Source: Moraxella nasicaprae
GTDB lineage: Bacteria; Pseudomonadota; Gammaproteobacteria; Pseudomonadales; Moraxellaceae
Length of the DNA: 32,000 nt
Assembly (NCBI RefSeq): GCF_025643275.1
Contig: NZ_CP089977.1
Span: forward strand, 1,920,001 to 1,952,000
Direction: 5' to 3'
The stretch's first letter is position 1; each line of letters starts with the position of its first letter. The notes under the pieces are model-generated. The model saw only the letters and a program-made list of their open reading frames with translations, had not been told where the DNA came from and made no database searches. The translations under genes were made by a program, and so were the position numbers. Below, one piece after another: positions 2,341 to 32,000 of the stretch.

Positions 2341-3423
2341 TTACTTTTTTAATTCTTCAAAAATTTCATCATATTCACGCACTATTTTTTGCCACCCATC
2401 ATTGTTTTTGGCAAGCTGTCGGCAATGGCGTTCGTTGTCGCAAGCAAAAGCGAGTTTATTATCATAAAACCAACCCTGCTCTATAAACACATCGCCTTGC
2501 CAATGCCCAAGTGGCGAGCGAGGTTTATCCGCATAGGCGGGTTTTGGAATGGTGCGTGTCCCAAAACCAAATGCCCCGCCATCAATTAGGCTACCTGTAT
2601 AGCGAACGCCATGATTGCCGTTGGTTGTGCCGTAGCCTGTTTGTGTACCATGCCAAAAATCACCCGTATATTCTATGCCATTGGCATAATGGAATGTGCC
2701 TTTGCCGTGCATGTGGTTATTTTTAAACTCACCCTCGTAACGGTCGCCATTTGCCCAGATAAAGACACCTTTGCCGTGCATTGAATTATTAACAAAATCG
2801 CCCTCATAATAATTGCCATTGGCAAAGAAATACTTGCCCTTGCCTGTGCGTTGGTCGTGTTGCCACTCGCCCTCATAGCGGTCGCCCACCCAAGGCTCAT
2901 TGGCGTACCAATAAGTGCCAAAACCATGATGCCTGCCGCCAATCATCTCGCCCTCGTAGCGGTCGCTCTCAAATTCACCTTTGCCAAAAGTGTATGTGCC
3001 ACGATAAATGTTAGTATTACTTTGAGGTTCGCCCTCGTAGATGTCGCCATTGTCAAAGACGATTTTTTGATAGCCTACTGCCACACCATCTTGATAGTCT
3101 GCTGTCATGATTTGGATTTCATCTTTTAGGTCTAGGGCTTGGGCGGTGGCTCGTCCGTGCAGTTTGCCTTGTCGGTATGTGCCAGTAACTGTGTATCCGC
3201 AGTTTGATTGTCTTTGACAAGTCCAAGTCGCTGTGCCGTAGCCTTCTGCAAAGCCGTCTTTACAGTCGCCACTCCATTTGACTTGGCGGTAAGGAATGTA
3301 TTGATTGGGATAGATTTTGCAAGTGTTGTTAGTGCTGATGGCATAGCCGTCCGATGGCTTGGCACTGACAAAGGCAGGTAGGGCGAATAATAGCGGTGTC
3401 AGTAGTAGGGCGTAGGATTTCAT
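2341..3423 (-). CDS. secreted MORN-repeat protein
   Basis: N-terminal signal peptide MKSYALLLTPLLFALPAFVSA. At least six tandem YxGxxxxxxxHGxG MORN-type repeats (e.g. YEGEFKNNHMHGKGTF, YEGDFVNNSMHGKGVF). Confidence 0.85.
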   Translation of the reverse strand: MKSYALLLTPLLFALPAFVSAKPSDGYAISTNNTCKIYPNQYIPYRQVKWSGDCKDGFAEGYGTATWTCQRQSNCGYTVTGTYRQGKLHGRATAQALDLKDEIQIMTADYQDGVAVGYQKIVFDNGDIYEGEPQSNTNIYRGTYTFGKGEFESDRYEGEMIGGRHHGFGTYWYANEPWVGDRYEGEWQHDQRTGKGKYFFANGNYYEGDFVNNSMHGKGVFIWANGDRYEGEFKNNHMHGKGTFHYANGIEYTGDFWHGTQTGYGTTNGNHGVRYTGSLIDGGAFGFGTRTIPKPAYADKPRSPLGHWQGDVFIEQGWFYDNKLAFACDNERHCRQLAKNNDGWQKIVREYDEIFEELKK

Positions 3424-7372: not shown

Positions 7373-8581
7373 TTATTGTAGTTGCCATAATTGCCCATTA
7401 TCCAGCAGGATAACGATGGTTTTGGCTGATGATTTGACATCAATGATTTTTCCATCAAAGTGGATAGGTAGGTGTTGTAGTGTTTCGTCCTTTTGGAGCA
7501 GGGTAAGCCCTTGATAATCGCTGGTGGGAATGATGGTGTATTGATTGGTTGCGGCTGTCAGGTTGGTATTTTTATCGCCAATCTGATGATTGCTAACGCC
7601 ATTTCCTAGTACGGTTTTTGTCAGTACATCATCTTGCCAGTCATAACGCACCAACTCTCGTTTTAGATGGGGCATTTGTACGGCATACAGCTTGCCCTGT
7701 GCCACAAAAGGCGACTGCCAGCGATGAGTTGGCAGAGCGGTGCTTTGGGCAAGAATGGTCAGCTTGCCTTGATTTAGCCCAATAACAGCCGTGCTTGCTC
7801 CACTGCCACCACCTGCGGGCGTACTGACCAGATAGGAGCGACCGTCTTTTTGCCATTTGGTGAGCAAATTAGCCTCAAACACCTGATTGGGCAGTTCAAG
7901 AGCAGCAGACAAATCATGCAAATCATGTCGTTCTAGATAGCGAATTTGCCCAGCCTCGATGGCATCGCCAAGCACGCCATGCTGATAGGTCTGTGTGTCT
8001 GGTTTGGCAAGTACGGCAATGTGTCCATCATTATCACTTGCCAAATCAATTTGTAGCGGCTTGACATCTGGCAGAACGGCAAAATCTTCACGAATGGCTT
8101 GCAGATGACCTGTTGTATCAATGCGTGCAATGTGATGTAAGCCCGATTGGTCTGTAATGACAATCGTGGCAAATGGTAGGGCAATCATGCCAGCATGGGT
8201 AGCCAACTTGATGGTTGTGGGGTATTTTTTGCCATCAATCCATTGTACAAAATTTCCCTGACGGTCCGCCAACCCCACTCGACCATAGCCTGCCACAGGG
8301 GCAATGTCTGGCGAAAAACCATCTGCCAGTTGCTTGTTGGGTGTGCCAATGTGCCACAGTTGCCCTTGCTCATTGATGCCAAAAATATTGCCATGTTCAT
8401 CAAGGGTAAACTGTCGAACCGCTCCCAGCTGCTTGGTGTTAAGTAGGGTTAGGGTTGGTGATGATGTGACGGGCATTGACGATGAGTTGGCAGGCGTATG
8501 CCCGCAAGCACTTAGATGAGCTAGGCCAAGCACGGCAATCACCAGTGTACGAAGTTTTGTAAAATAAGAGAATTTCATCAT
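7373..8581 (-). CDS. lipoprotein of unknown function
   Basis: The track ORF runs to 8716, but an internal MMKFSYFTKLRTLVIAVLGLAHLSAC gives a signal peptide plus lipobox (LSAC). The start is therefore placed at 8581/8578. Confidence 0.65.
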   Translation of the reverse strand: MMKFSYFTKLRTLVIAVLGLAHLSACGHTPANSSSMPVTSSPTLTLLNTKQLGAVRQFTLDEHGNIFGINEQGQLWHIGTPNKQLADGFSPDIAPVAGYGRVGLADRQGNFVQWIDGKKYPTTIKLATHAGMIALPFATIVITDQSGLHHIARIDTTGHLQAIREDFAVLPDVKPLQIDLASDNDGHIAVLAKPDTQTYQHGVLGDAIEAGQIRYLERHDLHDLSAALELPNQVFEANLLTKWQKDGRSYLVSTPAGGGSGASTAVIGLNQGKLTILAQSTALPTHRWQSPFVAQGKLYAVQMPHLKRELVRYDWQDDVLTKTVLGNGVSNHQIGDKNTNLTAATNQYTIIPTSDYQGLTLLQKDETLQHLPIHFDGKIIDVKSSAKTIVILLDNGQLWQLQ

Positions 8582-8789
8582 GATGACTGGTAAAAATACA
8601 TTGCTTAAAATCAACTCATTGTAGCATAAAAAATCCCAACATGAACTCATGCAATCATCAAAAGAATATGAAGCCATGTGGTATAAATGGTTTTGCGTGG
8701 CAAAAACCCACATCAAATTGCGGTGTTTGGTTGTGTTTGGGGGTAATTTTGGGTATCATACGCACATACGATTTAATGAAGCGGTATTC

Positions 8790-21943: not shown

Positions 21944-22030
21944 GCCAGTGTGGTGAAATTGGTAGACACGACGGATTCAAAATCCGTTGCCTTTAAAAGC
22001 GTGTCGGTTCGAGTCCGACCACTGGTACCA
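21944..22030 (+). tRNA. tRNA-Leu (anticodon CAA)
   Basis: Acceptor stem GCCAGTG/CACTGGT, anticodon arm ACGGA-TTCAAAA-TCCGT, long variable arm, GGTTCGAGTCC T-arm and encoded CCA. Close to the E. coli leuX-type sequence as I remember it. Confidence 0.92.
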
Positions 22031-22065: not shown

Positions 22066-22199
22066 CTATCTTGCCATCTTTGACACCTGTTATCATCTCA
22101 ATAATAACAGTATATATGACAGTATGCGACTATAAATACCGTCAAAATCACAAAAAGTATACTGTTATGGTTCATCAAAACCTTTTTAAAATTTGGTTG

Positions 22200-22545
22200 A
22201 TTTGATTTATTTGCCCATCGGCACAATATGTCTGTAAACTCCACACTCGCCTGACCATTCATTTTGGTTAAATCTCTATGAATGCCTAATGGGAAATTGG
22301 TTGATAATGAGCAAACTGCCAATGCCAGATTGCTTATCAATCATATCAAGCAGTATAGGGTATATCTGCGGTAGCAATTTGCCCATCAATAATTAACAAA
22401 TCCACTCTGCGGTATTTTTGCTTAATCTTAGCAATACCACTATCAGCGATTGATAAAATGATGTCTTCATATAAATCCCCAGCTTAAACAAATAACACTT
22501 TCTTTGGTTTGTGATAATCATGAGTACCCAAAGCTCATTAGCTCC
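22200..22545 (-). pseudogene. degraded IstB/DnaC-like AAA+ ATPase remnant (IS21-helper type), spread over three frames
   Basis: Minus-strand pieces read KESVICLS / GDLYEDIILSIADSGIAKIKQKYRRVDLLIIDG (Walker B-like, 22346-22483), LLDMIDKQSGIGSLLIINQFPI (sensor-1-like, 22276-22350) and ...TDILCRWANKS. Stops and frameshifts separate them. Confidence 0.35.
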
Positions 22546-22574
22546 TGCCGTAATCTGTAATAATACCACTTTGA

Positions 22575-23702
22575 GCCGACCTGACCACCATCACCCACAA
22601 CGGACAAACCCAAACCACCATCCCCCAAAACCAAAACATCTTAAATGAACTAAACACACAATTAACCCAAGATACAACCGCCAAAGACACCCAAGTCTTT
22701 TTAACTCCAAACACCACCAACACAAAAGACGAGCTGGTTCAAGGGCTTGCCAATCCTAGCAAAGGACACACCTACCTTGACATAGACCATCTGGACAATG
22801 CCATAGAAACCCTAAACCACGAAATCGCCCATCACAATGGCTTAGGAGAAACTTCTGCCACAAGAATGGGCAAAATCTCTGATTTGGCGTATAATATTGG
22901 CATCAGTCTTAACCAAGGGGACATCAATACTCATAGACAAGCCATCACACCAACTGCTCAAACCCTGCAAGGTTTAAGCACCGAAGATAGACTTGCTTAT
23001 CACGCTCAAAATCAAGCCTTGCTTGATGCCAATCAAGAACAGCTTAAGGGGGAGAAGGATAATGGGGATGGGGTTTGGAATAATCGCTACATTCCTCCGC
23101 TTATCAACACCAACAACCCAAATGCAAGAAGATGGAATGTAAACAATAATCCTCACGCTCTCACGGTTCGTAGAGAAATAGAGGTTATTCGTCAAACTTA
23201 TCCAAACTTTGGTGGTATCCAACAAATTACAAATGGACCAGTTACCCGAAGAGAAGCGGCTGAATATACCGCCTTTCGTATGTTTATTAGACATGGTACA
23301 AATCAGACCCATTCTAACCATAATGCTGCTTACGATGCTTTTAGAGCAAGTCCTTATTATCAAAATTTAAATAGACCCAATTCCACACAACTTAATATTG
23401 GGTTAAATAATGCTAATTACAATGTTGCTAGGCATGAGCAGATTAATAATAGAGTTATTTCTTTTGGACAAAATTCCAATCAAATAAACCACACATGGCG
23501 ACACTTGGAAGCAAAAGGCATTAGTAGACATATTGCTGAACCTGCTATAAGAAATGATCTTGGAAGAAGGGATTTGAATTCCATCCCTATAGGCATAACC
23601 AAAGGGTTTAAGATTACAATTAATGGTCAGCAAGTCCAGTATTATATTCATAGAATTGGCGTTAATCAGTACAATATAGGTAGATCCCATGTTAAAAGAT
23701 GA
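22575..23702 (+). CDS. 5'-truncated polymorphic-toxin gene end: T/N/Q-rich exoprotein segment, conserved pre-toxin block, and a unique ~225-aa C-terminal toxin domain (CT1)
   Basis: Frame 3 is open from the TGA at 22572-74 to TGA 23700-02, with no credible start or RBS at the 5' end. Block 22811-23016 recurs at 27182-27387. The unique C-terminal end overlaps a small ORF, as in toxin/immunity pairs. Confidence 0.65.
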   Translation, partial: ADLTTITHNGQTQTTIPQNQNILNELNTQLTQDTTAKDTQVFLTPNTTNTKDELVQGLANPSKGHTYLDIDHLDNAIETLNHEIAHHNGLGETSATRMGKISDLAYNIGISLNQGDINTHRQAITPTAQTLQGLSTEDRLAYHAQNQALLDANQEQLKGEKDNGDGVWNNRYIPPLINTNNPNARRWNVNNNPHALTVRREIEVIRQTYPNFGGIQQITNGPVTRREAAEYTAFRMFIRHGTNQTHSNHNAAYDAFRASPYYQNLNRPNSTQLNIGLNNANYNVARHEQINNRVISFGQNSNQINHTWRHLEAKGISRHIAEPAIRNDLGRRDLNSIPIGITKGFKITINGQQVQYYIHRIGVNQYNIGRSHVKR

Positions 23703-24063
23703 TATGAAACTGCGTTTTCTGTGCGAAAGTGAATTATTGCTAATTTCTAAATTACTGGACTTGTGTACAGCATCTTATAAACTTCAATCATCGCTCGAGC
23801 AAATATTGGTTTTTGATTTGACTGATGATGGAGGTATGGGTTCTTTGGAATTTTTTTATGACAGCGATTGTGTGAGGGAATTTGATAAACCGTTAATACA
23901 AGCTGAGACTTATGATACTGATGGTAGAAAGATAATGCTTGAATTGTCTTTGGATAATTATGGTTATTTGTATCAGCTAGATAGCTGGACATCTGATTTT
24001 AACCCACTGGTTAGCCCATTAGGCACATTAAATATTTTAGAGAACATAAGACTTGATTTCTAG
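23689..24063 (+). CDS. putative immunity protein for CT1 (acidic, 124 aa)
   Basis: The ATG lies 14 nt inside the toxin frame (alternative ATG at 23704). The DDGGMGSLEF ... LDSWTSDFNPL pattern resembles small immunity families seen next to Rhs/CdiA toxins (from memory, unverified). Confidence 0.6.
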   Translation: MLKDDMKLRFLCESELLLISKLLDLCTASYKLQSSLEQILVFDLTDDGGMGSLEFFYDSDCVREFDKPLIQAETYDTDGRKIMLELSLDNYGYLYQLDSWTSDFNPLVSPLGTLNILENIRLDF

Positions 24064-24136
24064 GTTGGTTAAGGTAAATTTTAGTTTAGGTCTTAAAATA
24101 CTGGCTATTATTGCTGTTTTATCTGATTAGGACTAT

Positions 24137-24262
24137 ATGTTGGTTAAAGACAATGCGGCTGGAAAACCAACTGCTCATGGTGGAAGTTACTGGAAGCTCT
24201 TAGATAAGCATGGTAATAGAATAGGTACACTTTCAAAAGATGGTATATATTTACGCAAATAA
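24137..24262 (+). pseudogene. orphan toxin 3' tail (41 codons)
   Basis: Reads ...AAGKPTAHGGSYWKLLDKHGNRIGTLSKDGIYLRK*. The frame opens only at 24131 and there is no RBS. It ends 17 nt before the next small ORF. Confidence 0.45.
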
Positions 24263-24279
24263 TATTTGAGGTAATGTTA

Positions 24280-24725
24280 ATGCATAATTTTATATATGTT
24301 TGTTATTTATCTTGTTTTGATCACTGGCTTACAGAGATAGAGGCTGATGAGTGTCAAATTTTAATCTTTGATATTGCAAAAGACAACAGAAATTTGGATG
24401 AGTACTTTGAAGGGGAAAAAAGATTTTTGGGTTTTTATACTGCAATCTCTGATTTGGTTGAAGATGTGAAAACTAATAAGCTTTTTAATACAAAATCAAA
24501 AAGTTTTCAGGAGATTTTGTTAAATAGCCTAAGAGAAAAGTCCCTAAAAGAAATTTATTATCCTGAAAAAAAATTTTAGTCAAAGGTGGTTATGATAGAA
24601 CAGACCTCATCTTTATCCCCAATCAAGATATTTTGAATTATATTCAGCAATTGGCACAAGAAAATAATTTATTTATTATTGAAATTATTGATTACAATGA
24701 TTACTTGTTAAATTATGATGATTAG
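24280..24725 (+). pseudogene. immunity-like gene split by a frameshift in an A8 run
   Basis: GAGGT RBS before ATG 24280, and the frame stops at 24577-79. One extra A in the A8 run (24566-24573) would join it to frame 3, ...KKILVKGGYDRTDLIFIPNQDILNYIQQLAQENNLFIIEIIDYNDYLLNYDD* (to 24725). Confidence 0.45.
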
Positions 24726-24728
24726 TAA

Positions 24729-24878
24729 ACCCTCTCCGATGCCACAGGCATCAGCACTAAGGTACTGCTTACCAGCATTACCGCCCAAAGAGGCATTCAA
24801 GGGGGAACTAACAAAGTACTGACCGTCATAGATACCCATGACAAACTATTGGCTCATCATCTAAAACATTGGAGTTAA
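24729..24878 (+). pseudogene. orphan exoprotein/toxin fragment, possibly a diverged pre-toxin block end
   Basis: A relatively GC-richer 150-nt frame, TLSDATGISTKVLLTSITAQRGIQGGTNKVLTVIDTHDKLLAHHLKHWS*. ITAQ..IQG and D.LLAHH echo ITPTAQTLQG and D.LAYH/LAHH of the repeated block. A minus-strand reading cannot be excluded. Confidence 0.3.
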
Positions 24879-24885
24879 AATTCGA

Positions 24886-25302
24886 ATGAAACAGATTGAA
24901 CTAATTATCCATACCTTTTTAAATCGTCATTTTGCTTCAGAGCTTTACTTTCTTTGGGATGTTGTTTGTGGGGTTAGTGAAAATCGCATACAACCACCCT
25001 GTGAAGAAATTATTTATGATAACGAAACGGCATTTTTTCTCGCTTTGGAATTCTTGTTTGCCCAAAACTACTGTCACTTAATAACCAATGATGGTAATAA
25101 AGAGATTGATGACGAAATAGCCAAGATGGATGCCAAACAAGCTTGTCAGCTACTTAAAGATGTTTGGATTGGTGAGGAGGCTATGAATAAGCTTGATGAA
25201 GAAAATCAGTATGTTGGTTGGTGGTTTAGGATATTATGCCCCTATAACATCGTTCATCGATATGTAGATGAAGATGGTGAAGAGAGATGGGTTCTTAATT
25301 GA
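24886..25302 (+). CDS. putative immunity protein (acidic, 138 aa)
   Basis: GGAG about 11 nt upstream of the ATG. AT-rich, acidic, Trp-rich C-terminus. It directly follows a toxin-like fragment. Confidence 0.5.
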   Translation: MKQIELIIHTFLNRHFASELYFLWDVVCGVSENRIQPPCEEIIYDNETAFFLALEFLFAQNYCHLITNDGNKEIDDEIAKMDAKQACQLLKDVWIGEEAMNKLDEENQYVGWWFRILCPYNIVHRYVDEDGEERWVLN

Positions 25303-25308
25303 TTAGCT

Positions 25309-25343
25309 CGTAGGTTGGGTTGAACAACAGTGAAACCCAATAT
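25309..25343 (+). repeat. partial copy (left arm) of the MITE-like element
   Basis: CGTAGGTTGGGTTGAACAACAGTGAAACCCAATAT matches the first ~35 nt of the element at 25760. It contains the hairpin TTGGGTT/AACCCAA. Confidence 0.6.
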
Positions 25344-25496
25344 TTATCAGGTGGAAATTTATCCCATACTGAAAGAAAGTTTAGTCTGTACGATGGTTAT
25401 TTATCTAAATCTGATACAATAATATTTCATATCAGTTCAAATATTTTATATGACCCTAAAATTACCTATGATTGTAAAAAAAGTGAAAGTGGGTAA
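25344..25496 (+). pseudogene. orphan toxin 3' tail
   Basis: Frame 3 reads LSGGNLSHTERKFSLYDGYLSKSDTIIFHISSNILYDPKITYDCKKSESG*. It has no start, and the frame opens inside the repeat. Confidence 0.35.
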
Positions 25497-25540
25497 TCAA
25501 GAAACCCAAATTTGCCAACCTAAAAAATAGCGGAGTTTTT

Positions 25541-25744
25541 ATGAACAAACAAACCTCTTTTAATCCCTATTCTCAAGAAATGTTACCAGAGGGGTTTAAA
25601 TATCCAAAAAGCTACCTTGAATTATCCAAAGATACTTCAAGCATTAACTGGGACAGCCCTGCAGATACCATCTATTCCTCCCTCTATCAAGCCAAACTAT
25701 TAGCTGAGTTTCACTTGGCTTTGATGGGGGGGGTTGGTGCTTAA
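25541..25744 (+). pseudogene. truncated immunity-like ORF (67 aa) containing a G8 run
   Basis: GGAG RBS. The N-terminus LPEGFKYPKSYLEL resembles SMI1/KNR4 (SUKH)-type immunity N-termini. The ORF ends just after G8 (25726-25733) and just before the MITE-like element. Confidence 0.4.
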
Positions 25745-25759
25745 TCACACCAAAACAGC

Positions 25760-25855
25760 CCGTAGGTTGGGTTGAACGGCAGTGAAACCTAAGCATTTAT
25801 GGTGTAACCAATTGATTTTATTGGATTGGGTTTCGTACCTCAACCCAATCTATGG
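25760..25855 (+). mobile_element. MITE-like ~96-bp element with terminal inverted repeats
   Basis: Left end CCGTAGGTTGGGTTGA versus the reverse complement of the right end, CCATAGATTGGGTTGA. Internal hairpin ATTGGGTT/AACCCAAT. A homologous copy lies at 27063-27152. Confidence 0.6.
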
Positions 25856-25923
25856 GTGGTGCATTAGGTGGAGCGGTTATGATTTGCTCAAAAAAAGTAG
25901 GAGATGCTTGTGTCAATCAATGA
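25852..25923 (+). pseudogene. orphan toxin 3' tail (Gly-rich, Cys-x7-Cys end)
   Basis: ...GGALGGAVMICSKKVGDACVNQ*. This is related to the end of the 26181-26348 frame. Confidence 0.35.
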
Positions 25924-25977
25924 TGGTTATTATAAGAATAGAACTAAGTTGAGAAACTTTCATATCAGCTTGCTAAT

Positions 25978-26184
25978 ATGCTTTTTTTATTTCTCACTAT
26001 AGCTATGTTGGCATATCTTAGATTTGTACTTCTTGCTAAAATAGTGTTCTATGTGATGTTTTTATGCATATTTCATACTTTTTATCGATGCTTTATTCTT
26101 CACCAGCATGTTATGGGAAAAATGAAAAAAAAGAAGAAAGAAGGGGTAAATCCCATTTTTGATATAGATATTTTTGATGATTGA
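25978..26184 (+). CDS. small membrane protein, putative immunity (68 aa)
   Basis: Two hydrophobic segments followed by a Lys-rich and then acidic tail. A T7 run at 25982-25988 could hide a frameshift from an upstream ATG at 25904. Confidence 0.5.
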   Translation: MLFLFLTIAMLAYLRFVLLAKIVFYVMFLCIFHTFYRCFILHQHVMGKMKKKKKEGVNPIFDIDIFDD

Positions 26185-26348
26185 TATTAAAGGGCGTTAT
26201 TGTCCCTATTGCTGGCATCAAGGGAAATGTTACTCTTTACGGAAATGGCTCTACCAGTTACTCTTATGGTCAATCGGTAGGTGCTGAAGCTGGGGTTGCT
26301 ATACAAATATGTGAAAATAAAACATCTGAATACTGTTCCCAACAATAG
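26181..26348 (+). pseudogene. orphan toxin 3' tail (Gly/Ser-rich, Cys-x7-Cys end)
   Basis: ...KGVIVPIAGIKGNVTLYGNGSTSYSYGQSVGAEAGVAIQICENKTSEYCSQQ*. The only possible start is a TTG at the frame opening. Confidence 0.4.
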
Positions 26349-26356
26349 AGGTAAAA

Positions 26357-26575
26357 ATGAATAAACATATTATCTATACATTTATCGCAGTTTGGCTATT
26401 TGGTATAATCACAGGAATTTTGGGTTTTTTGATAGACATCAATATCTACATCCACAATATTATACTTGCCATCTCGGTCTTTTTTACAATACTTCTATCT
26501 TTATGCATAGGTGGATTTGTTTTTGATTCAAATATTAAATTTTTTAAAAAAATTTTAAGAAAAAAAATCAAATAA
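26357..26575 (+). CDS. small two-TM membrane protein, putative immunity (72 aa)
   Basis: GAGG RBS 5-6 nt upstream of the ATG. Two clear TM segments and a basic C-terminal tail. Confidence 0.55.
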   Translation: MNKHIIYTFIAVWLFGIITGILGFLIDINIYIHNIILAISVFFTILLSLCIGGFVFDSNIKFFKKILRKKIK

Positions 26576-26576
26576 T

Positions 26577-26669
26577 GCAGGTGTGGACTTGCTAGATACT
26601 GAGTCTAGAATCAAGTATGGTTGCCACATGTTAGGATATACAGCAGCACAAGGCTGTAAATTAAAATGA
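26577..26669 (+). pseudogene. orphan toxin 3' tail
   Basis: AGVDLLDTESRIKYGCHMLGYTAAQGCKLK*. The stop overlaps the next ATG (ATGA 26666-26669). Confidence 0.3.
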
Positions 26670-27012
26670 ATAATTACATTCTTTTTTCTTATATGCACTT
26701 TCATCGGTCATTGCTGGTTTTTCTTTTGGGCTATGTATCTATATTATAGAATGGGTTGCTCAAAGTGGGGCGGAAATGCCATTTGCTTTCGCCTTTTTTT
26801 CCAGTATGGGCTATGCGATTTTGGGCCTTCCCAATACATCAATTTTATTTGGGGTTGATATTACCATAGAGGAATATTGGCAAGCTATGAGTAAATACAA
26901 AATTTTTTTTCTAATGATATTGGGTGGTATTCTGGCTGTTATATGCCCACCTTTGATTTTTCTTACTATCGGTGAAGAATTTGATATAATTAGAATTACT
27001 GGGTTTTTATAA
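26666..27012 (+). pseudogene. membrane immunity-like gene split by a frameshift in a T6 run
   Basis: ATG 26666 (frame 2) stops after 27 codons. One extra T in the T6 run (26682-26687) joins it to frame 1, ...LYALSSVIAGFSFGLCIYIIEWVAQSGAEMPFAFAFF..., which is the track ORF 26776-27012. Confidence 0.45.
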
Positions 27013-27062
27013 TGGGATTTATACATCCATTAATTGCCCATCTCTTGATTAAAGCTGTAGCA

Positions 27063-27152
27063 CGGTAGGCTTGGGTTGGCGATAGCACAACCTAGGCATT
27101 ATGATGTAACTCATTGAATTTGTTGGTTTTCGTACCTCAACCCAATCTACGG
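27063..27152 (+). mobile_element. MITE-like element, second full copy
   Basis: Collinear with 25760-25855 and in the same orientation. The right end TTCGTACCTCAACCCAATCTACGG is nearly identical. Confidence 0.6.
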
Positions 27153-27167
27153 GCTTAAGATTTGTAA

Positions 27168-27425
27168 AACCTATTTCTTCTCCCAAACCACGAAATCGCC
27201 CACCACAATGGCTTAGGAGAAACTTCTGCCACAAGAATGGGCAAAATCTCTGATTTGGCGTATAATATTGGCACAAGTCTTAATAAAGAGGACATCAATA
27301 CTCATAGACAAGCTATCACACCAACTGCTCAAACTCTACAAAATCTAAGCACCGATGAACAGCTTGCTCACCACACAAACAACCAAGTAATCTTATTGGA
27401 GGAGATTCTTTGGCAGTGGCTTTAA
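27168..27425 (+). pseudogene. second copy of the pre-toxin block with a degraded toxin
   Basis: 27182-27387 aligns without gaps to 22811-23016 (offset 4371). The frame opens at 27168 and stops about 20 codons after the homology ends. Confidence 0.65.
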
Positions 27426-27456
27426 ATGTGGATTATAATGGCGTTCCTGCAAAAAT

Positions 27457-27597
27457 ATGGGCGATGAACATATTAGAATTGCTGGTACAAGATACAATCG
27501 AGGTTTAGAGTTATCAAAAGAGAAAATAGAGCAAGATACATCATACGGGGACAGTATCTTAAAAAGAAAAAACAAACTAAAAGAGTTAATAAAATGA
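27457..27597 (+). pseudogene. probable last piece of the degraded second toxin (46 codons)
   Basis: MGDEHIRIAGTRYNRGLELSKEKIEQDTSYGDSILKRKNKLKELIK*. The stop overlaps the next ATG (ATGA 27594-27597). Frames 3, 2 and 1 each carry an open piece across 27168-27597. Confidence 0.35.
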
Positions 27598-27962
27598 AAA
27601 TAATGAATATTGCATTATCGATTTGCATTTGTTTTTTTATATTTATTTTTCTAAACAAGTATGATTCTTGGGGTATTTCTGAGGGGCTGTGTATTTATCA
27701 TGGTAACTCTGTAGGTGTCGCTCTAATACTATCCTTTATTTTATTTTTTGCAAATTTTTTATTTTTGTTTTTCTTTAGGGATAAACAAACAATGACCAAC
27801 ATTATATTTATTATCATCTCGATTGGTCTTTTGGCGTATTGGCATCCTGTAATGTACAATCATTCAATAAATTTTCTATTAACACACACCAATATCCAAA
27901 TAGAACAACTTGGCGAGATTGCTAGATGTGAGATACAACGCAATAACGACCTAAGGTTTTAG
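27594..27962 (+). CDS. polytopic small membrane protein, putative immunity (122 aa)
   Basis: Four hydrophobic segments. Translationally coupled to the preceding toxin-end frame. Confidence 0.55.
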   Translation: MKIMNIALSICICFFIFIFLNKYDSWGISEGLCIYHGNSVGVALILSFILFFANFLFLFFFRDKQTMTNIIFIIISIGLLAYWHPVMYNHSINFLLTHTNIQIEQLGEIARCEIQRNNDLRF

Positions 27963-27967
27963 AGATG

Positions 27968-28005
27968 TAAAAAACTAAGCAGCTGCCCATTTGGGAAAAT
28001 GGGCA
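27968..28005 (-). terminator. terminator-like hairpin at the right island border
   Basis: Stem TGCCCATTT (27984-27992) / AAATGGGCA (27997-28005). On the minus strand a T6 run follows after 9 nt. Confidence 0.45.
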
Positions 28006-28078
28006 AAAAGAGCGAGGGGCGTCATTGATTTGACCTTGACAAAACCATTTGCCATAAGATCCTGGGAGAGTATGATAC

Positions 28079-29344
28079 TCATTCACCATCAACAATAATG
28101 ATATTTCGTTCGATGAGAGCTGTTTGCCAAGCAACAAGATGCTCCAAGCCAATCAGTTCTACCGCCAAACCTTGTGGGTTATTGGCAAGTTGGTCGATTT
28201 TTCTTAGCGAGCCACGATCAGGTGGTCGATGTGCTGAAACGCCAAGATATATCTGGGCTTGTACCGAAGCTGCCAAAGCGAGTAATTTGGCAATATCGTC
28301 AGCATCATCAACCACGCCAAACTGTTCAAGGGCGACATATTTGGTGGGTGTGCTGTCTGGGTATTCAAAATTTGCCCCAATCAATCTATCGCTGAGTGTT
28401 TGGGTCTGTTTGGAGGTGGGCTTACTGGGCTGGTAGTCGTCTTGGTCGATGACTTGTTTGCTGAATTTATTTAGTAATTCTTGATAATATGGCAAATTGG
28501 TATCAATGGTAAAATTGGTATTGGCACGCAGATGACTAATCAGATATGCCAGTAATCTAGGAAAAATGCCGTATAGACCAATGCTTGCGATGATTAGCCA
28601 AGCAAATGTGGCAGCGTGAGCGTTCGTATTGTTAAGGTCTGGTAAAGCAAGCCCAAATTGTTTTGGTAAAAAGCCTAATATCTGTACCATCATTTCAAAA
28701 TGATGTTTTTGTAATAATGTCGAACCCCAAACAAAATCATAGCGTTTGAACAAAAATAAACCTAACAAACCCAGCAAACTGCCCAACAGACCAAATAGCC
28801 AAGCACCGTGCATTACTTTGGCGATGTGCCATTTTTTCTTCTGAGCGATGCTTTGTTCGATGACGGCGATGGCGGCTTGTTGGCTGGTGTTTTGCCCAAA
28901 AGCCTTAGCAATGGGGGTGTGTAGCGTGCTTTTTTCAAGCAAAAGCCCAAATAATGACGGTCTGCGTCTGCCCAAGCTAATCAGCCAAAAAACCAGCGAC
29001 AATGTATGCCAGCCTAATAAAGCAATCAGCACATAGAAAAAATTAACCGCTTGTGAGCTGAGTAATCCTGCCACGCCAAGCAATGCAAAGAAAAAATAAC
29101 CCATGTACAGCATACGCACAGCGGTGCGAATGTATAGCTGGCTATTTTCAAGTGCGTCCATCAGCTCGCCTGTGCTATCAATCTTGACAGCTCGCAAAAA
29201 TAGCTTGTCATAAGCGGACTCATCGCCTGTTTTTAGGGTTTCGGTGATGAGTTTGGGGTTTTGAGCAAAAATAAAGTTTTGTTGTTCAAGCTGGCGAATC
29301 AGCTCGACATGTTGGTGCTGGCGTTGGGTGTATTGATGGTTCAT
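28079..29344 (-). CDS. polytopic membrane protein (DUF2868-like by recollection)
   Basis: 421 aa with a soluble N-terminus, several TM helices and a soluble C-terminal domain. The ATG overlaps the stop of the rnfB-like gene (ATGA at 29341-29344). Confidence 0.55.
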   Translation of the reverse strand: MNHQYTQRQHQHVELIRQLEQQNFIFAQNPKLITETLKTGDESAYDKLFLRAVKIDSTGELMDALENSQLYIRTAVRMLYMGYFFFALLGVAGLLSSQAVNFFYVLIALLGWHTLSLVFWLISLGRRRPSLFGLLLEKSTLHTPIAKAFGQNTSQQAAIAVIEQSIAQKKKWHIAKVMHGAWLFGLLGSLLGLLGLFLFKRYDFVWGSTLLQKHHFEMMVQILGFLPKQFGLALPDLNNTNAHAATFAWLIIASIGLYGIFPRLLAYLISHLRANTNFTIDTNLPYYQELLNKFSKQVIDQDDYQPSKPTSKQTQTLSDRLIGANFEYPDSTPTKYVALEQFGVVDDADDIAKLLALAASVQAQIYLGVSAHRPPDRGSLRKIDQLANNPQGLAVELIGLEHLVAWQTALIERNIIIVDGE

Positions 29345-30168
29345 GGCGATAGAGCATTGAGTTGTTGGGTAAGGTGGTTAAGTTGTTCTTGGAGTGCTGC
29401 ATCATCACGCACTGCCAGTTGTTTGGTCAGTTTTTTGATTTGGGTGCGTAATTTGGCAGCCAAAATGGTGTTTTTAGCGGTGGTTTCATCAATGGCGGTC
29501 TGCTCGCCACTTAGCACATTGGCGATGGCGGATTCAATGGTGCTAACCACAGGTTTATCGCCAGTTTCAATGGTTTTGGTCATACGCCCCAGATGTCTAT
29601 GGTAGCGGATTCTTAGGTGTGTTTGTTCGTTTTGTCGTTCTTTGTCGGTCAGGGTGCGTGGATATGGCACAAGGCTGATGCAGTCCACAGGACAAGGGGC
29701 AATACATAGCTCACAACCTGTGCATAGCTCATTGATGATGCTGTGCATGTGCTTAGCCGTGCCAATGATGGCATCAACAGGGCAGGCGGGAATACATTTG
29801 GTGCAGCCGATACAGCTAGATTCATCGATGACGGCTCGCATTTCTATGGGGCGATTGGTATGTTCGTCAATGGGGTGTTTGCTGGGTGTGGCTGGTAAGT
29901 ATGTGCTTTGTTGCAAAGAGGCGATTTGGTCGCTGACCGCCTGACCGCCTGGCACGCATAGATTGGTTGGTTCGCCATTGATGACGATGCCGTAGGCATA
30001 AGGCAGGCAGCCATCGTGATGCCCACATAGTCCGCATTGGGTTTGGGGCAAGATGGCATCGATATTGGCGATGGCGATTTTTTGGCTGGCTGGTAAGCGG
30101 TCAATGGCTAGCGGAGAAAACAAAATGGGCAAATCGCTTAATCTGTCCAGATGAGTGGTGTCAGTCAT
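29341..30168 (-). CDS. RnfB/RsxB-like iron-sulfur ferredoxin without an N-terminal membrane anchor
   Basis: LPQTQCGLCGHHDGCLPYA...CVPGG cluster motif plus two 4Fe-4S motifs, CIGCTKCIPACP and CTGCELCIAPCP. Long helical C-terminal extension. Confidence 0.8.
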   Translation of the reverse strand: MTDTTHLDRLSDLPILFSPLAIDRLPASQKIAIANIDAILPQTQCGLCGHHDGCLPYAYGIVINGEPTNLCVPGGQAVSDQIASLQQSTYLPATPSKHPIDEHTNRPIEMRAVIDESSCIGCTKCIPACPVDAIIGTAKHMHSIINELCTGCELCIAPCPVDCISLVPYPRTLTDKERQNEQTHLRIRYHRHLGRMTKTIETGDKPVVSTIESAIANVLSGEQTAIDETTAKNTILAAKLRTQIKKLTKQLAVRDDAALQEQLNHLTQQLNALSP

Positions 30169-30185
30169 AATGTTTGGTTAATGAG

Positions 30186-30986
30186 TTAATGATGATGAAA
30201 CTGTTCGATGACAGCACGAATCAATTGATGAGAGATACTACCAGCACGAGGCGTGGGAGGTAATTGGCTTAGTTCAAAAAAATCCGCTTCGGCAAGCTCT
30301 TGCTTATCAATGACGATGTCGCCCCCGTCATAATGGGCAAAAAATCCCAGCATCAAATTACTAGGATATGGCCACGATTGGCTACCAAAATAACGAATGT
30401 CCTTGATGCAAATGCCTATCTCTTCTTGCACCTCTCGTACAATCGCCATTTCGACCGTCTCGCCTGCTTCCATAAAGCCTGCAATCAGTCCAAATATGCC
30501 ACTTTTGTGCTTGTGGTGTCTGGCAAGTAGTAGCTGTGGTTTTGGTGTGTCAGTACGAACGATGGCAACAATCACACACGGCTGTATGCGTGGATAGGCG
30601 TGATGTTTGCAGGCGGTGCAGATTTTGGCGTATTCGTGGCGATGAAAGATGGTTTTGTTACCACACACACCGCAAAATTGATGCTCATGTTGCCACCGAA
30701 CCAAAGCAATGGCGTGGCTTAGATGATTGGCGGCTGTTTCGTCCATGTGGCTAAGCAAGTTGCCAAATTCGATGAATTGCAGGTTTTTGGCGGTTTTGCT
30801 GTCATAGCCTTGCCCATAGGGATATATCAACCCAAGCTCCAATGCGTCCGTCAATCCGATGGCATGTGTCGCCAACCAATGATGGGGCGGTGCAAATAGC
30901 TTGATGGCTGATTTTGGCGTATTGGCAAAAGTGTGTGGCAGACCATTTTCATCACATAATACACCACTGCCACGAATGACCCACAT
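30186..30986 (-). CDS. nudC: NADH pyrophosphatase (Nudix) NudC
   Basis: Zinc ribbon CGVCGNKT...CTACKHHAYP and Nudix box GFMEAGETVEMAIVREVQEEIGI. Start set at ATG 30986, which shares one base with the dnaQ stop (TGATG). Confidence 0.85.
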   Translation of the reverse strand: MWVIRGSGVLCDENGLPHTFANTPKSAIKLFAPPHHWLATHAIGLTDALELGLIYPYGQGYDSKTAKNLQFIEFGNLLSHMDETAANHLSHAIALVRWQHEHQFCGVCGNKTIFHRHEYAKICTACKHHAYPRIQPCVIVAIVRTDTPKPQLLLARHHKHKSGIFGLIAGFMEAGETVEMAIVREVQEEIGICIKDIRYFGSQSWPYPSNLMLGFFAHYDGGDIVIDKQELAEADFFELSQLPPTPRAGSISHQLIRAVIEQFHHH

Positions 30987-32000
30987 CACGATAAGACAGA
31001 CTCTCGCCAAATGCGGTCAGCGTCAAAATCAGCACCAGACTGCTGAATTAGGCTGGCATATTGTGATAAATCGCTAAACGCAACCCCTTGTTCATTTTGT
31101 TCACTATTTTTGACTTCTTCGTCCATTGACAAAGCAAGCTGACCGCCTGTCATCGCCAAAAAAACTTCCGCCAAAATCTCAGAGTCCAGTAATGCCCCGT
31201 GGAAAGTACGGTTTTTATTGCCTACACCCAAGCGATTGACTAGGGCGTCAAGTGTATTTTTTTGACCAGGATACATTTGCCTTGCCATTGCCAGACTGTC
31301 GGTCACTTGAACTCTATCCAAAAAGTCGGTCAGTCCAACTTTGTCAAATTCCATTTTTAAAAATCGCATATCAAAGTTGGCGTTGTGTGCGATGACTTCG
31401 CTGTCCACCATAAATTCATAAATGTCTTGGGCGACTTCGGCAAATTTTGGTTTGTCGGTCAAAAATTCATTGCTAATGCCATGAACTCTGATGACTTCCT
31501 CGTCCATCTCTCGGTCGGGATTGATATAGACATGCAGTTTTTTGCCAGTAAATTTGCGACCAACCATCTCAATGATACCCACCTCAACGATACGATCACC
31601 GCCTTGGTCTTCAAAACCTGTGGTCTCTGTATCCATGATGAGTTGGCGTTCGGGCTTGCCACGATTGTCAGGCTTGGGTAATAACGCCCAAAAATCAGGA
31701 TTGATACGACTGGTATCGCCATCATAGGCAGGGTTTTGTTCGCAATGCTCTGACGATGGCGTGGTATGCACACTGATGTCTGTTGATGAATTTGGCGTGG
31801 CGTCTTGGTCGGTTAAGGCGGGAATGAATGTTTCGCCAGCACCATCGACACCCAGATTGGCAAGTTTATCCGCCATTTCGTTACCTGCGTGCCCTGCATG
31901 ACCTTTGACCCACTGCCAATCAATACGGCGATTTTGACTAAGGGTATCTAAGCGTTGCCATAAATCTTGATTAAGTACCGCCTTACCGTCTGATTTTTTC
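30986..32000 (-). CDS. dnaQ: RNase HI - DNA polymerase III epsilon (DnaQ) fusion protein; N-terminus outside the window
   Basis: DnaQ motifs MDTETTGF, AHNANFDMRFL and HGALLDSEILAEVF. The frame stays open upstream of the track's M (31876) to the window edge and reads ...DLWQRLDTLSQNRRIDWQWVKGHAGHAGNEMADKLA, an RNase HI C-terminus. Confidence 0.85.
   Translation of the reverse strand, partial: KKSDGKAVLNQDLWQRLDTLSQNRRIDWQWVKGHAGHAGNEMADKLANLGVDGAGETFIPALTDQDATPNSSTDISVHTTPSSEHCEQNPAYDGDTSRINPDFWALLPKPDNRGKPERQLIMDTETTGFEDQGGDRIVEVGIIEMVGRKFTGKKLHVYINPDREMDEEVIRVHGISNEFLTDKPKFAEVAQDIYEFMVDSEVIAHNANFDMRFLKMEFDKVGLTDFLDRVQVTDSLAMARQMYPGQKNTLDALVNRLGVGNKNRTFHGALLDSEILAEVFLAMTGGQLALSMDEEVKNSEQNEQGVAFSDLSQYASLIQQSGADFDADRIWRESVLS

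Follow-up and report, generated by a model that had tools for sequence, protein, structure and literature searches.

Moraxella includes nasopharyngeal and ocular commensals and pathogens of goats, cattle and humans. Here, we report on a 32,000-nucleotide (nt) stretch of Moraxella nasicaprae DNA (NCBI RefSeq assembly GCF_025643275.1, contig NZ_CP089977.1, positions 1,920,001 to 1,952,000), referred to below as the window and numbered from its first letter, which at 22066-27965 contains an array of eight toxin/immunity pairs. This array is very probably the stranded, decaying (fossil) orphan region of a Moraxella-type cdi locus, i.e., of a CdiB/CdiA contact-dependent inhibition (CDI) system. The interval is AT-rich (GC content of 35.3%, compared with 44.2% on its left and 46.3% on its right), all of its coding frames lie on the plus strand, and the remaining 26 kb of the window hold housekeeping genes only. 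An initial annotation, made from the letters of the window alone, had already described an AT-rich, plus-strand orphan array of C-terminal toxins (CTs) and immunity genes with no transporter or full-length exoprotein in the window, and we agree with it on all of these points. The fragments share a CdiA pre-toxin region, and each is followed by a small immunity open reading frame (ORF). Its count of eight modules survived homology-based re-parsing, although several of the individual frames did not, and its picture of a module as a startless toxin frame plus an immunity ORF is right in its grammar; most of the toxin frames, however, are short dead tails and no intact cassettes. Six of the eight pairs show the same tail/immunity adjacency in other genomes or contigs, and the module 2 pair, found together on shared contigs, is a seventh supported pair.

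The array opens with a 5'-truncated cdiA remnant (22575..23072, plus strand; tblastn/tblastx), which carries what we call the type-1 Moraxella pre-toxin region and ends in ...GEKDNGDG. It belongs to a frame of 375 open codons (22575-23702) with no ATG, GTG or TTG before 22866. The conserved segment lies in a direct repeat of 206 nt (22811-23016 versus 27182-27387, 88% identical), and in tblastn/tblastx the best segment is 64-86% identical to the region before the variable C-terminus of TPS-domain exoproteins in M. lacunata, M. cuniculi and M. bovoculi; cdiA-type frames with a matching region before the CT were also found in M. porci, M. oblonga and M. pluranimalium. In M. cuniculi (locus L002), family members stand in an array behind a 2804-aa TPS-domain protein whose C-terminal part reads ...NQDILNELNAQLTQ...GHTYLDIDHLDNAIEALNHEITHHNGQGETSATRMGKLGNLAYNIG...EKESD, followed by the variable tip. 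In M. lacunata (L005), a 3341-aa protein with ESPR, TPS and filamentous-haemagglutinin (FHA) repeats carries the segment close to its end, has a CDI_toxin_EC869_like tip and is followed by a Pfam CdiI gene; in M. bovoculi (L011), the segment ends a 3312-aa ESPR/TPS protein, with an Imm8 gene next to it downstream. ShlB/TpsB genes adjoin these Moraxella arrays. By homology, the conserved segment represents the pre-toxin region of CdiA in Moraxella; its contexts in TPS-domain CdiA proteins therefore make the delivery system an ordinary two-partner (type Vb) secretion system, CdiB/CdiA. The suggestion of the initial annotation that the parent delivery system may be uncharacterised is thereby superseded, the segment being the pre-toxin region of TPS-domain CdiA proteins of 2804-3341 aa; the full-length gene with this segment, for which related genomes were to be searched, is present in M. 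cuniculi, M. lacunata and M. bovoculi.

Used as a protein query, the 375-aa frame matched Moraxella proteins only, 200-554 aa long, which have frame residues ~100-165 in common and beyond them no relation in their C-termini; PT-HINT or papain-like C39 domains occur in some of these. It should be noted that this word-indexed search missed every full-length CdiA and is not usable to rule such proteins out. Within the first cdiA remnant, ...ITHNGQTQTT is fused straight to QNQNILNELN (22575-22626). Compared with full-length CdiA (L002 ~1830-2250), ~130 codons after 22619 are missing, an internal deletion besides the 5' truncation, and these skipped codons include a glycine-rich hydrophobic stretch, GMFGVAVGATATGL.

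The variable part of these proteins starts after ...E(S/N)GDG(V/F)W, and the boundary in the window reads ...GEKDNGDGVW. The VENN motif is absent, PT-VENN (PF04829) has no match at E <= 1 in the window frames, and ESPR and TPS have no match in the window fragments. No Pfam family covers the conserved segment, and RHS, PAAR, VgrG and DUF1020 have no match in the proteins found carrying it. A second, paralogous pre-toxin type heads array proteins of 685-701 aa in M. bovis and M. lacunata and follows the pattern MAKAIQDNP...GHELDHIRGG...QNQALLEGN...GREGEW; types 1 and 2 align over ~215 residues at 28% identity. Judged by homology, this type-1/type-2 family is specific to Moraxella. Both types have an invariant L-x-HExxH-x2-3-G-x2-E motif (22815-22850 and 27186-27221 in the window), and the 5' homology of orphans starts at NHEIAHH in many Moraxella arrays, a recurrence which suggests a recombination handle. 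One could read the Moraxella pre-toxin region as a minimal zincin-like peptidase that processes itself and releases the toxin tip, replacing the VENN-dependent cleavage of classical CdiA. We regard this as quite doubtful. Matches to zincins are no better than expected by chance (3e11, E 2.5; Zincin_1, E 0.19, in one of twelve members). The AlphaFold2 model of the pre-toxin region, built from a shallow alignment, is unusable (pLDDT 44). If it were true, the start of orphan homology at NHEIAHH would reflect selection that keeps the catalytic core with each cassette.

The first toxin, CT1, has two domains. The N-terminal (middle) domain (23073..23453, plus strand), a putative cytoplasm-entry domain, is common to P0003 and P0019, which bear other toxin domains behind it, and occurs also in the VENN-type orphan P0044 and in M. 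canis CdiA. The entry role is proposed by analogy with the bipartite organisation of CdiA-CTs (PMC11630599), in which an entry domain is followed by a toxin domain (PMC11630599, PMC6336857). The toxin domain (23454..23702, plus strand) bears the pattern FGxNxNQxxHTWRH...Y...NIGR, with HTWRH at 23490-23504. In an exhaustive library search, this domain (the last ~80 residues) gave 189 matches at E <= 1e-3, C-terminal every time, and its carriers include RHS-repeat proteins, a 1678-aa DUF637 haemagglutinin-type protein and a PT-VENN orphan; F, N, Q, H, R, H and Y are invariant (FGxNxNQxxHxxRH...Y). No Pfam or NCBIfam family covers the domain, and among PDB sequences neither CT1 nor cdiI1 nor the toxin profile gave a meaningful match. 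The AlphaFold2 model from a 20-sequence alignment (pLDDT 88) has a beta-alpha-alpha-beta-beta-beta topology, for which Foldseek against the PDB placed HigB2 (5jaa_D) first (probability 0.99, E 0.017, TM score 0.55), followed by RelE, BrnT, ParE2 and other RelE/ParE-type toxins. With moderate confidence, the predicted fold makes this domain a RelE/ParE-like (BECR-type) toxin, probably an RNase. In its predicted topology and its invariant His/Arg/His/Tyr residues, CT1 may resemble the BECR/RelE-fold CdiA-CT RNases and RelE, HigB and ParE. In contrast to RelE, HigB and ParE, CT1 has no sequence similarity to solved structures, its partner is a DUF6984 protein without a solved homologue, and its likely activity is derived from the model.

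That partner, cdiI1 (23689..24063, plus strand), is intact and encodes a DUF6984 protein (PF22480 at 1e-22) of 124 aa with an isoelectric point (pI) of 4.1. Its ATG at 23689 lies inside the frame ending at 23702, as had been noted before, so that it overlaps the CT1 stop by 14 nt. DUF6984 is the only significant match of the profile searches (Pfam, NCBIfam) with all frames, a check that the initial annotation had suggested; DUF596 is a further, weak match. The cdiI1 product clusters at 90% identity with proteins of M. bovoculi and M. lacunata, and the first orphan module downstream of cdiA in M. bovoculi matches CT1 plus cdiI1 at ~88% identity. A DUF6984 gene follows the M. bovoculi orphan copy of the CT1 toxin as well, and a full-length M. 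canis CdiA (TPS, DUF637, PT-VENN) ends in a two-domain CT like CT1, then a DUF6984 gene. DUF6984 is thus connected with immunity to the CT1 toxin in three contexts that are independent of one another, and on this association evidence we consider DUF6984 a putative immunity protein to CT1-type toxins.

The other seven modules, all on the plus strand, are more eroded on the toxin side. CT2 (24131..24262) is a tail, the last 43 codons of a P0347-type toxin, and its 41-aa ORF clusters with the C-terminus of P0347, a 234-aa Moraxella sp. protein. The cdiI2 gene (24274..24725) is frameshifted at an A8 run (24566-24573), with 101 aa in frame and then 52 codons out of frame; its relatives are 148-150 aa long, P0342 and P0344 read through ...EKKILVKGGYDRT..., and a truncated 99-aa form (P0343) recurs in independent assemblies. 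The frame 24567-24725, taken in the initial annotation for part of a module, is so the out-of-frame C-terminus of cdiI2. Next comes a type-2 pre-toxin remnant of 40 codons (24729..24848), 64-70% identical to the N-terminal part of the array proteins L001 8503-10560 (685 aa) and L005 16040-18145 (701 aa), which is joined directly to the CT3 tail (24851..24889), the last 12 codons (...SSSKTLELKFE and stop) of the P0010 toxin, found also in a 952-aa CdiA fragment of M. canis. The intact cdiI3 (24886..25302; 138 aa, pI 4.4) begins at an ATGA overlap with the CT3 stop, belongs to a 90% cluster whose 16 members include proteins of M. canis and M. cuniculi, and has a weak DUF596 match (E 0.14); in M. 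canis, its homologue stands directly after the ...LELKFE toxin. The CT4 tail (25446..25529; ...YDPKITYDCKK...) is frameshifted at an A7 run and matches the end of a 553-aa orphan toxin of M. cuniculi (L002 7551-9212), and cdiI4 (25541..25744) is truncated, with only its first 39 codons matching the 124-aa SMI1/KNR4-like immunity gene of M. cuniculi. Of CT5 (25857..25923), a glycine-rich toxin, the final ~22 codons survive; they read ...MGGALGGAVMICSKKVGDACVNQ and stop, and align with the end of a 184-aa toxin frame (L023 3047-3601). Its partner cdiI5 (25910..26184), whose small membrane immunity product is 91 aa long in L023, has a frameshift close to the T7 run at 25982, and the supposed separate frame 25978-26184 is part of this gene.

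In module 6, the Gly/Ser-rich CT6 tail (26181..26348, 55 codons) has an end that is conserved in L023 and L024. Its parent toxin was not found; the glycine-rich P0012 was considered and rejected, as it has no similarity. The cdiI6 gene (26357..26575) is intact, with an AGAGG ribosome-binding site, and encodes 72 aa with two transmembrane segments predicted from hydropathy; homologues occur in four metagenome contigs (L023-L026) at 39-75% identity, the highest being that of a 70-aa ORF in L023. The CT7 tail (26559..26669, 36 codons) has a counterpart in L028, in which a comparable 48-aa ORF precedes a cdiI7 homologue with a 4-nt overlap. The membrane immunity gene cdiI7 (26666..27065; 132 aa in relatives) starts at the ATGA overlap at 26666 and, compared with the full-length P0334 and P0336, has two single-base deletions, in the T6 run 26682-26687 and the T5 run 27004-27008. 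The last module is headed by the second type-1 pre-toxin copy (27168..27395), with homology from NHEIAHH at 27186, and CT8 (27396..27597) is an internally deleted, frameshifted remnant of a P0006-type toxin. Another M. nasicaprae-like assembly (L015) matches the window at 96.9% identity from 27396 to 32000, departs from it precisely at 27396 and retains a larger part of CT8, an indel which shows ongoing strain-level erosion. The intact cdiI8 (27594..27962; 122 aa, multi-pass membrane protein by hydropathy) has an ATGA overlap with the CT8 stop at 27594, this overlap and that at 26666 being as first described, and is homologous over its whole length to the gene after P0006-type toxins in M. cuniculi and M. 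porci. The intact P0006 of M. cuniculi (L002 10001-11041) has a weak SLT lytic-transglycosylase match (E 0.005) and a multi-pass membrane immunity partner; there are hints here that P0006-type toxins may act in the periplasm on the cell wall.

The junctions between modules are marked by elements resembling miniature inverted-repeat transposable elements (MITEs) or repetitive extragenic palindromic (REP) sequences: a partial element at 25305..25340, an element at 25757..25856 with terminal inverted repeats CCGTAGGTTGGGTTGA ... TCAACCCAATCTATGG, which cuts off CT5, and an element at 27060..27155. Such an element is ~95-100 nt long, with terminal inverted repeats CCGTAGGTTGGGTTGA ... TCAACCCAATCTAYGG. 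Within the 32 kb, copies lie in the array only, at module junctions, and the frames 25314-25445 and 25776-25856, proposed at first as module parts, are read-through of these repeats. Related copies are also seen in the cdi arrays of other species (L002 ~7545, L023 5004-5099).

Taken over the array, one toxin of eight (CT1) is complete, while the other seven survive as short tails (12-55 codons) or with an internal deletion; among the immunity genes, four of eight (cdiI1, cdiI3, cdiI6 and cdiI8) are intact and the other four are frameshifted or truncated. The frameshifts of the immunity genes and of the CT4 tail are located at or beside homopolymer runs, i.e., 24566-24573 (A8), 25476 (A7), 25982 (T7), 26682-26687 (T6) and 27004-27008 (T5). 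The flanks contain 17 homopolymer runs of >= 7 nt and their housekeeping ORFs are intact, so the frameshifts in the array are probably real; they could be fixed decay or slipped-strand on/off switching. As read from these remnants, the order of decay is clear, with the toxins lost first and the immunity genes next, by homopolymer slips and MITE insertions.

The left edge of the AT-rich interval is a tRNA-Leu(CAA) gene (21944..22030, plus strand; ARAGORN; Rfam tRNA, 58 bits), the sole match of the Rfam search. Between it and the cdiA remnant lies, on the minus strand in three frames (22100..22490), a degenerate remnant of an IS21-family IstB helper ATPase, with 44-49% identity to annotated istB genes over 71 aa (tblastn, E 2e-4) and a weak Bac_DnaA ATPase match (E 0.013); the initial annotation was thus correct in placing an ATPase remnant of insertion sequence (IS) type beside the cut at 22575. 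Its idea of island integration at a leuX-type tRNA gene was not borne out, with no integrase ORF found in the window (ORF list, Pfam) and no further copy of the tRNA 3' end as a direct repeat of 18 nt or more. TpsB, VgrG/PAAR and MafA are absent from the 32-kb window, and RHS repeats and the DUF1020 MafB N-terminus from its ORFs. A terminator scan found none, and promoter-like matches are not enriched (36 found versus 27 ± 5.6 expected). The flanking genes encode a PP-loop ATPase, UvrB, an OTCase-family carbamoyltransferase, NAD kinase, an ABC1 kinase, a PHO4 transporter, TruD, MetH, a DUF2868 protein and an RnfB-like Fe-S protein. Amid the housekeeping genes are also a 360-aa MORN-repeat protein (2341-3423, minus strand) and a 447-aa ORF without a Pfam match (7373-8716, minus strand). 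The ABC1...NUDIX-Fe-S-DUF2868 block is kept in M. cuniculi and two metagenomic Moraxella lineages. Beyond DUF2868, these three have other genes, with no tRNA-Leu, metH or array nearby, which places the M. nasicaprae array at a synteny breakpoint; from one Moraxella species to another, the order of the neighbouring genes varies.

The homology, the architecture and the state of decay can be read from the nucleotide sequence itself, and a mechanism that would account for them is as follows. In an intact system, CdiB (a TpsB) exports a CdiA of ~3000 aa, whose last ~200-400 residues after the pre-toxin region form a swappable toxin; the small CdiI, encoded immediately downstream, neutralises the toxin tip, and displaced toxin-tip/immunity pairs pile up behind cdiA as orphans. 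Here, an IS21-associated deletion probably removed cdiB and ~95% of cdiA, the IS21 remnant abutting the break. The toxin fragments would then be neither made nor exported, because they have no start codon, signal peptide or TPS domain; orphan arrays and missing start signals have been described before (PMC3150448, PMC6336857). Having their own starts, cdiI1, cdiI3, cdiI6 and cdiI8 may still be expressed and protect against the CdiA toxins of co-resident Moraxella, by analogy with E. coli EC93, in which orphan CdiI is expressed and protective (PMC3150448). Were a full-length cdiA present in the cell or to arrive there, CT1 could also be reloaded onto it by recombination across the 250-500 bp of shared pre-toxin sequence.

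Several points weigh against this reading. Classical orphan arrays lie directly behind cdiBAI, which is absent here within 22 kb upstream and 4 kb downstream. No M. nasicaprae TpsB is among the best 120 of 2137 homologues. A scan of genome contigs with the pre-toxin alignment gave eight Moraxella loci, with none in M. nasicaprae, M. bovis, M. bovoculi or M. cuniculi, and absence from it is therefore uninformative. The idea of a protective repertoire is less convincing with half of the immunity genes broken. The in-frame Met at 22866, in an invariant MGK, leaves translation of a 278-aa product possible; no Shine-Dalgarno-like sequence was found at a usable distance from it, an AGGAG lying 17 nt upstream. 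Toxicity and expression of the array are, moreover, judged from sequence.

Among the other explanations, a selected stand-alone immunity island, like acquired interbacterial defence clusters, in which the toxin remnants are passengers, deserves the most weight; we consider it tentatively possible, and it is partly compatible with a decaying cdi orphan region. In its favour, four immunity genes are full length while seven of the eight toxins are destroyed, the identity between species is 90% or more for both cdiI1 and cdiI3, tail-plus-immunity units stand alone beside housekeeping genes in M. porci and L027, and orphan CdiI is expressed and protective in E. coli EC93 (PMC3150448). Set against this are the four immunity genes of eight that are frameshifted or truncated, and the frameshift of cdiI8 in the contig of the second strain (L015). 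A live toxin reservoir, with a functional cdiBA elsewhere in M. nasicaprae to which the array supplies CT1 and its immunity gene for switching via the pre-toxin repeat, seems unlikely to us. In its favour, pre-toxin homology is retained over 500 bp at CT1 and 210 bp at the second copy, the recurrent NHEIAHH start in Moraxella arrays suggests a recombination handle, and such reloading is documented in Yersinia (PMC3150448); however, seven of the eight toxins are incomplete, the array has no link to any cdiA, no TpsB of this species stands among the closest 120 of the 2137 homologues, and no other M. nasicaprae protein with the segment was returned by the word-indexed search, which misses full-length CdiA.

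It is very improbable that the annotated 278-aa ORF (ATG 22866) is translated and forms an intracellular addiction pair of toxin-antitoxin (TA) type with DUF6984. The Met-Gly-Lys on which such a start would depend is invariant in all family members, but the Met is equally invariant, and internal, in full-length CdiA, and in both window copies the homology extends upstream of it. The toxin fold resembles RelE, HigB and ParE of TA systems and the overlap of the two genes is a TA-like geometry; as to expression, there is no Shine-Dalgarno sequence at a usable distance, and the promoter-like match at 22867-22895 sits downstream of the ATG and belongs to a class not enriched in the window (36 versus 27 ± 5.6). 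Delivery by another or novel system, i.e., Rhs with a type VI secretion system, MafB or a new exoprotein, can hardly be maintained. The lack of a PT-VENN motif and of a Pfam family over the segment, the occurrence of the CT1 toxin domain on Rhs proteins and the weak resemblance of cdiI3 to DUF596 (Neisseria) might point that way, yet every long carrier of the segment found is an ESPR/TPS-domain exoprotein (FHA repeats being shown for that of M. lacunata), and RHS, PAAR, VgrG and DUF1020 have no match in the segment carriers found or in the window ORFs.

A stranded cdi orphan region agrees well with what has been described elsewhere. Like the orphan cdiA-CT/cdiI arrays of E. coli EC93 and EC869, Yersinia and Neisseria (Poole et al. 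2011, PMC3150448), which lie downstream of cdiBAI, the M. nasicaprae array has pre-toxin homology to full-length CdiA without start or secretion signals, a small and often overlapping immunity ORF after each fragment, IS interruption and exchange of modules between species. The one feature of such arrays that it lacks is a place beside cdiBAI, none being in the window. It differs further in its boundary, which is ...E(S/N)GDG(V/F)W after an HExxH-containing pre-toxin region instead of VENN (the M. canis carrier of a CT1-type toxin does have PT-VENN), and in its far advanced decay, with one toxin and four immunity genes of eight intact. The type-II CdiA loci of Acinetobacter, with PT-LPEN and 3' orphan remnants (De Gregorio et al. 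2019, PMC6336857), are likewise from Moraxellaceae and have a non-VENN pre-toxin region, bipartite CTs with shared N-terminal modules, and stepwise remnants in which immunity genes predominate; in contrast to them, the Moraxella pre-toxin region has no LPEN, two paralogous types of it occur here, and the array is detached from cdiA.

Other Moraxella loci offer some further observations. Moraxella cdi loci, such as L011 (11408-20427) and L017 (13733-17020), often have mobile-element or plasmid genes as neighbours, among them IS3 and IS1595 transposases, Toprim, MPTase-PolyVal, ParA, a relaxase, a resolvase and ParE, and one M. bovis TpsB (P0192) is plasmid-borne. Lone toxin-tail-plus-immunity units were seen at L010 9480-10143 (M. 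porci, next to ppx), L027 4837-5235 (pepA/lptFG) and L028 692-1233, and stranded CDI immunity remnants therefore seem common.

The general understanding of CDI is unchanged by these results; orphan arrays and loci with a non-VENN pre-toxin region were already known (PMC3150448, PMC6336857). For Moraxella, CdiB/CdiA contact-dependent inhibition provides a named system for M. nasicaprae genes that are annotated as hypothetical, and DUF6984 is tied, on the association evidence given above, to putative immunity against a widespread toxin domain with a predicted RelE-like fold and no Pfam family. The array documents how a cdi orphan region decays once it is parted from its exporter, and its modules show that toxin/immunity cassettes move between Moraxella species at identities of at least 88%.

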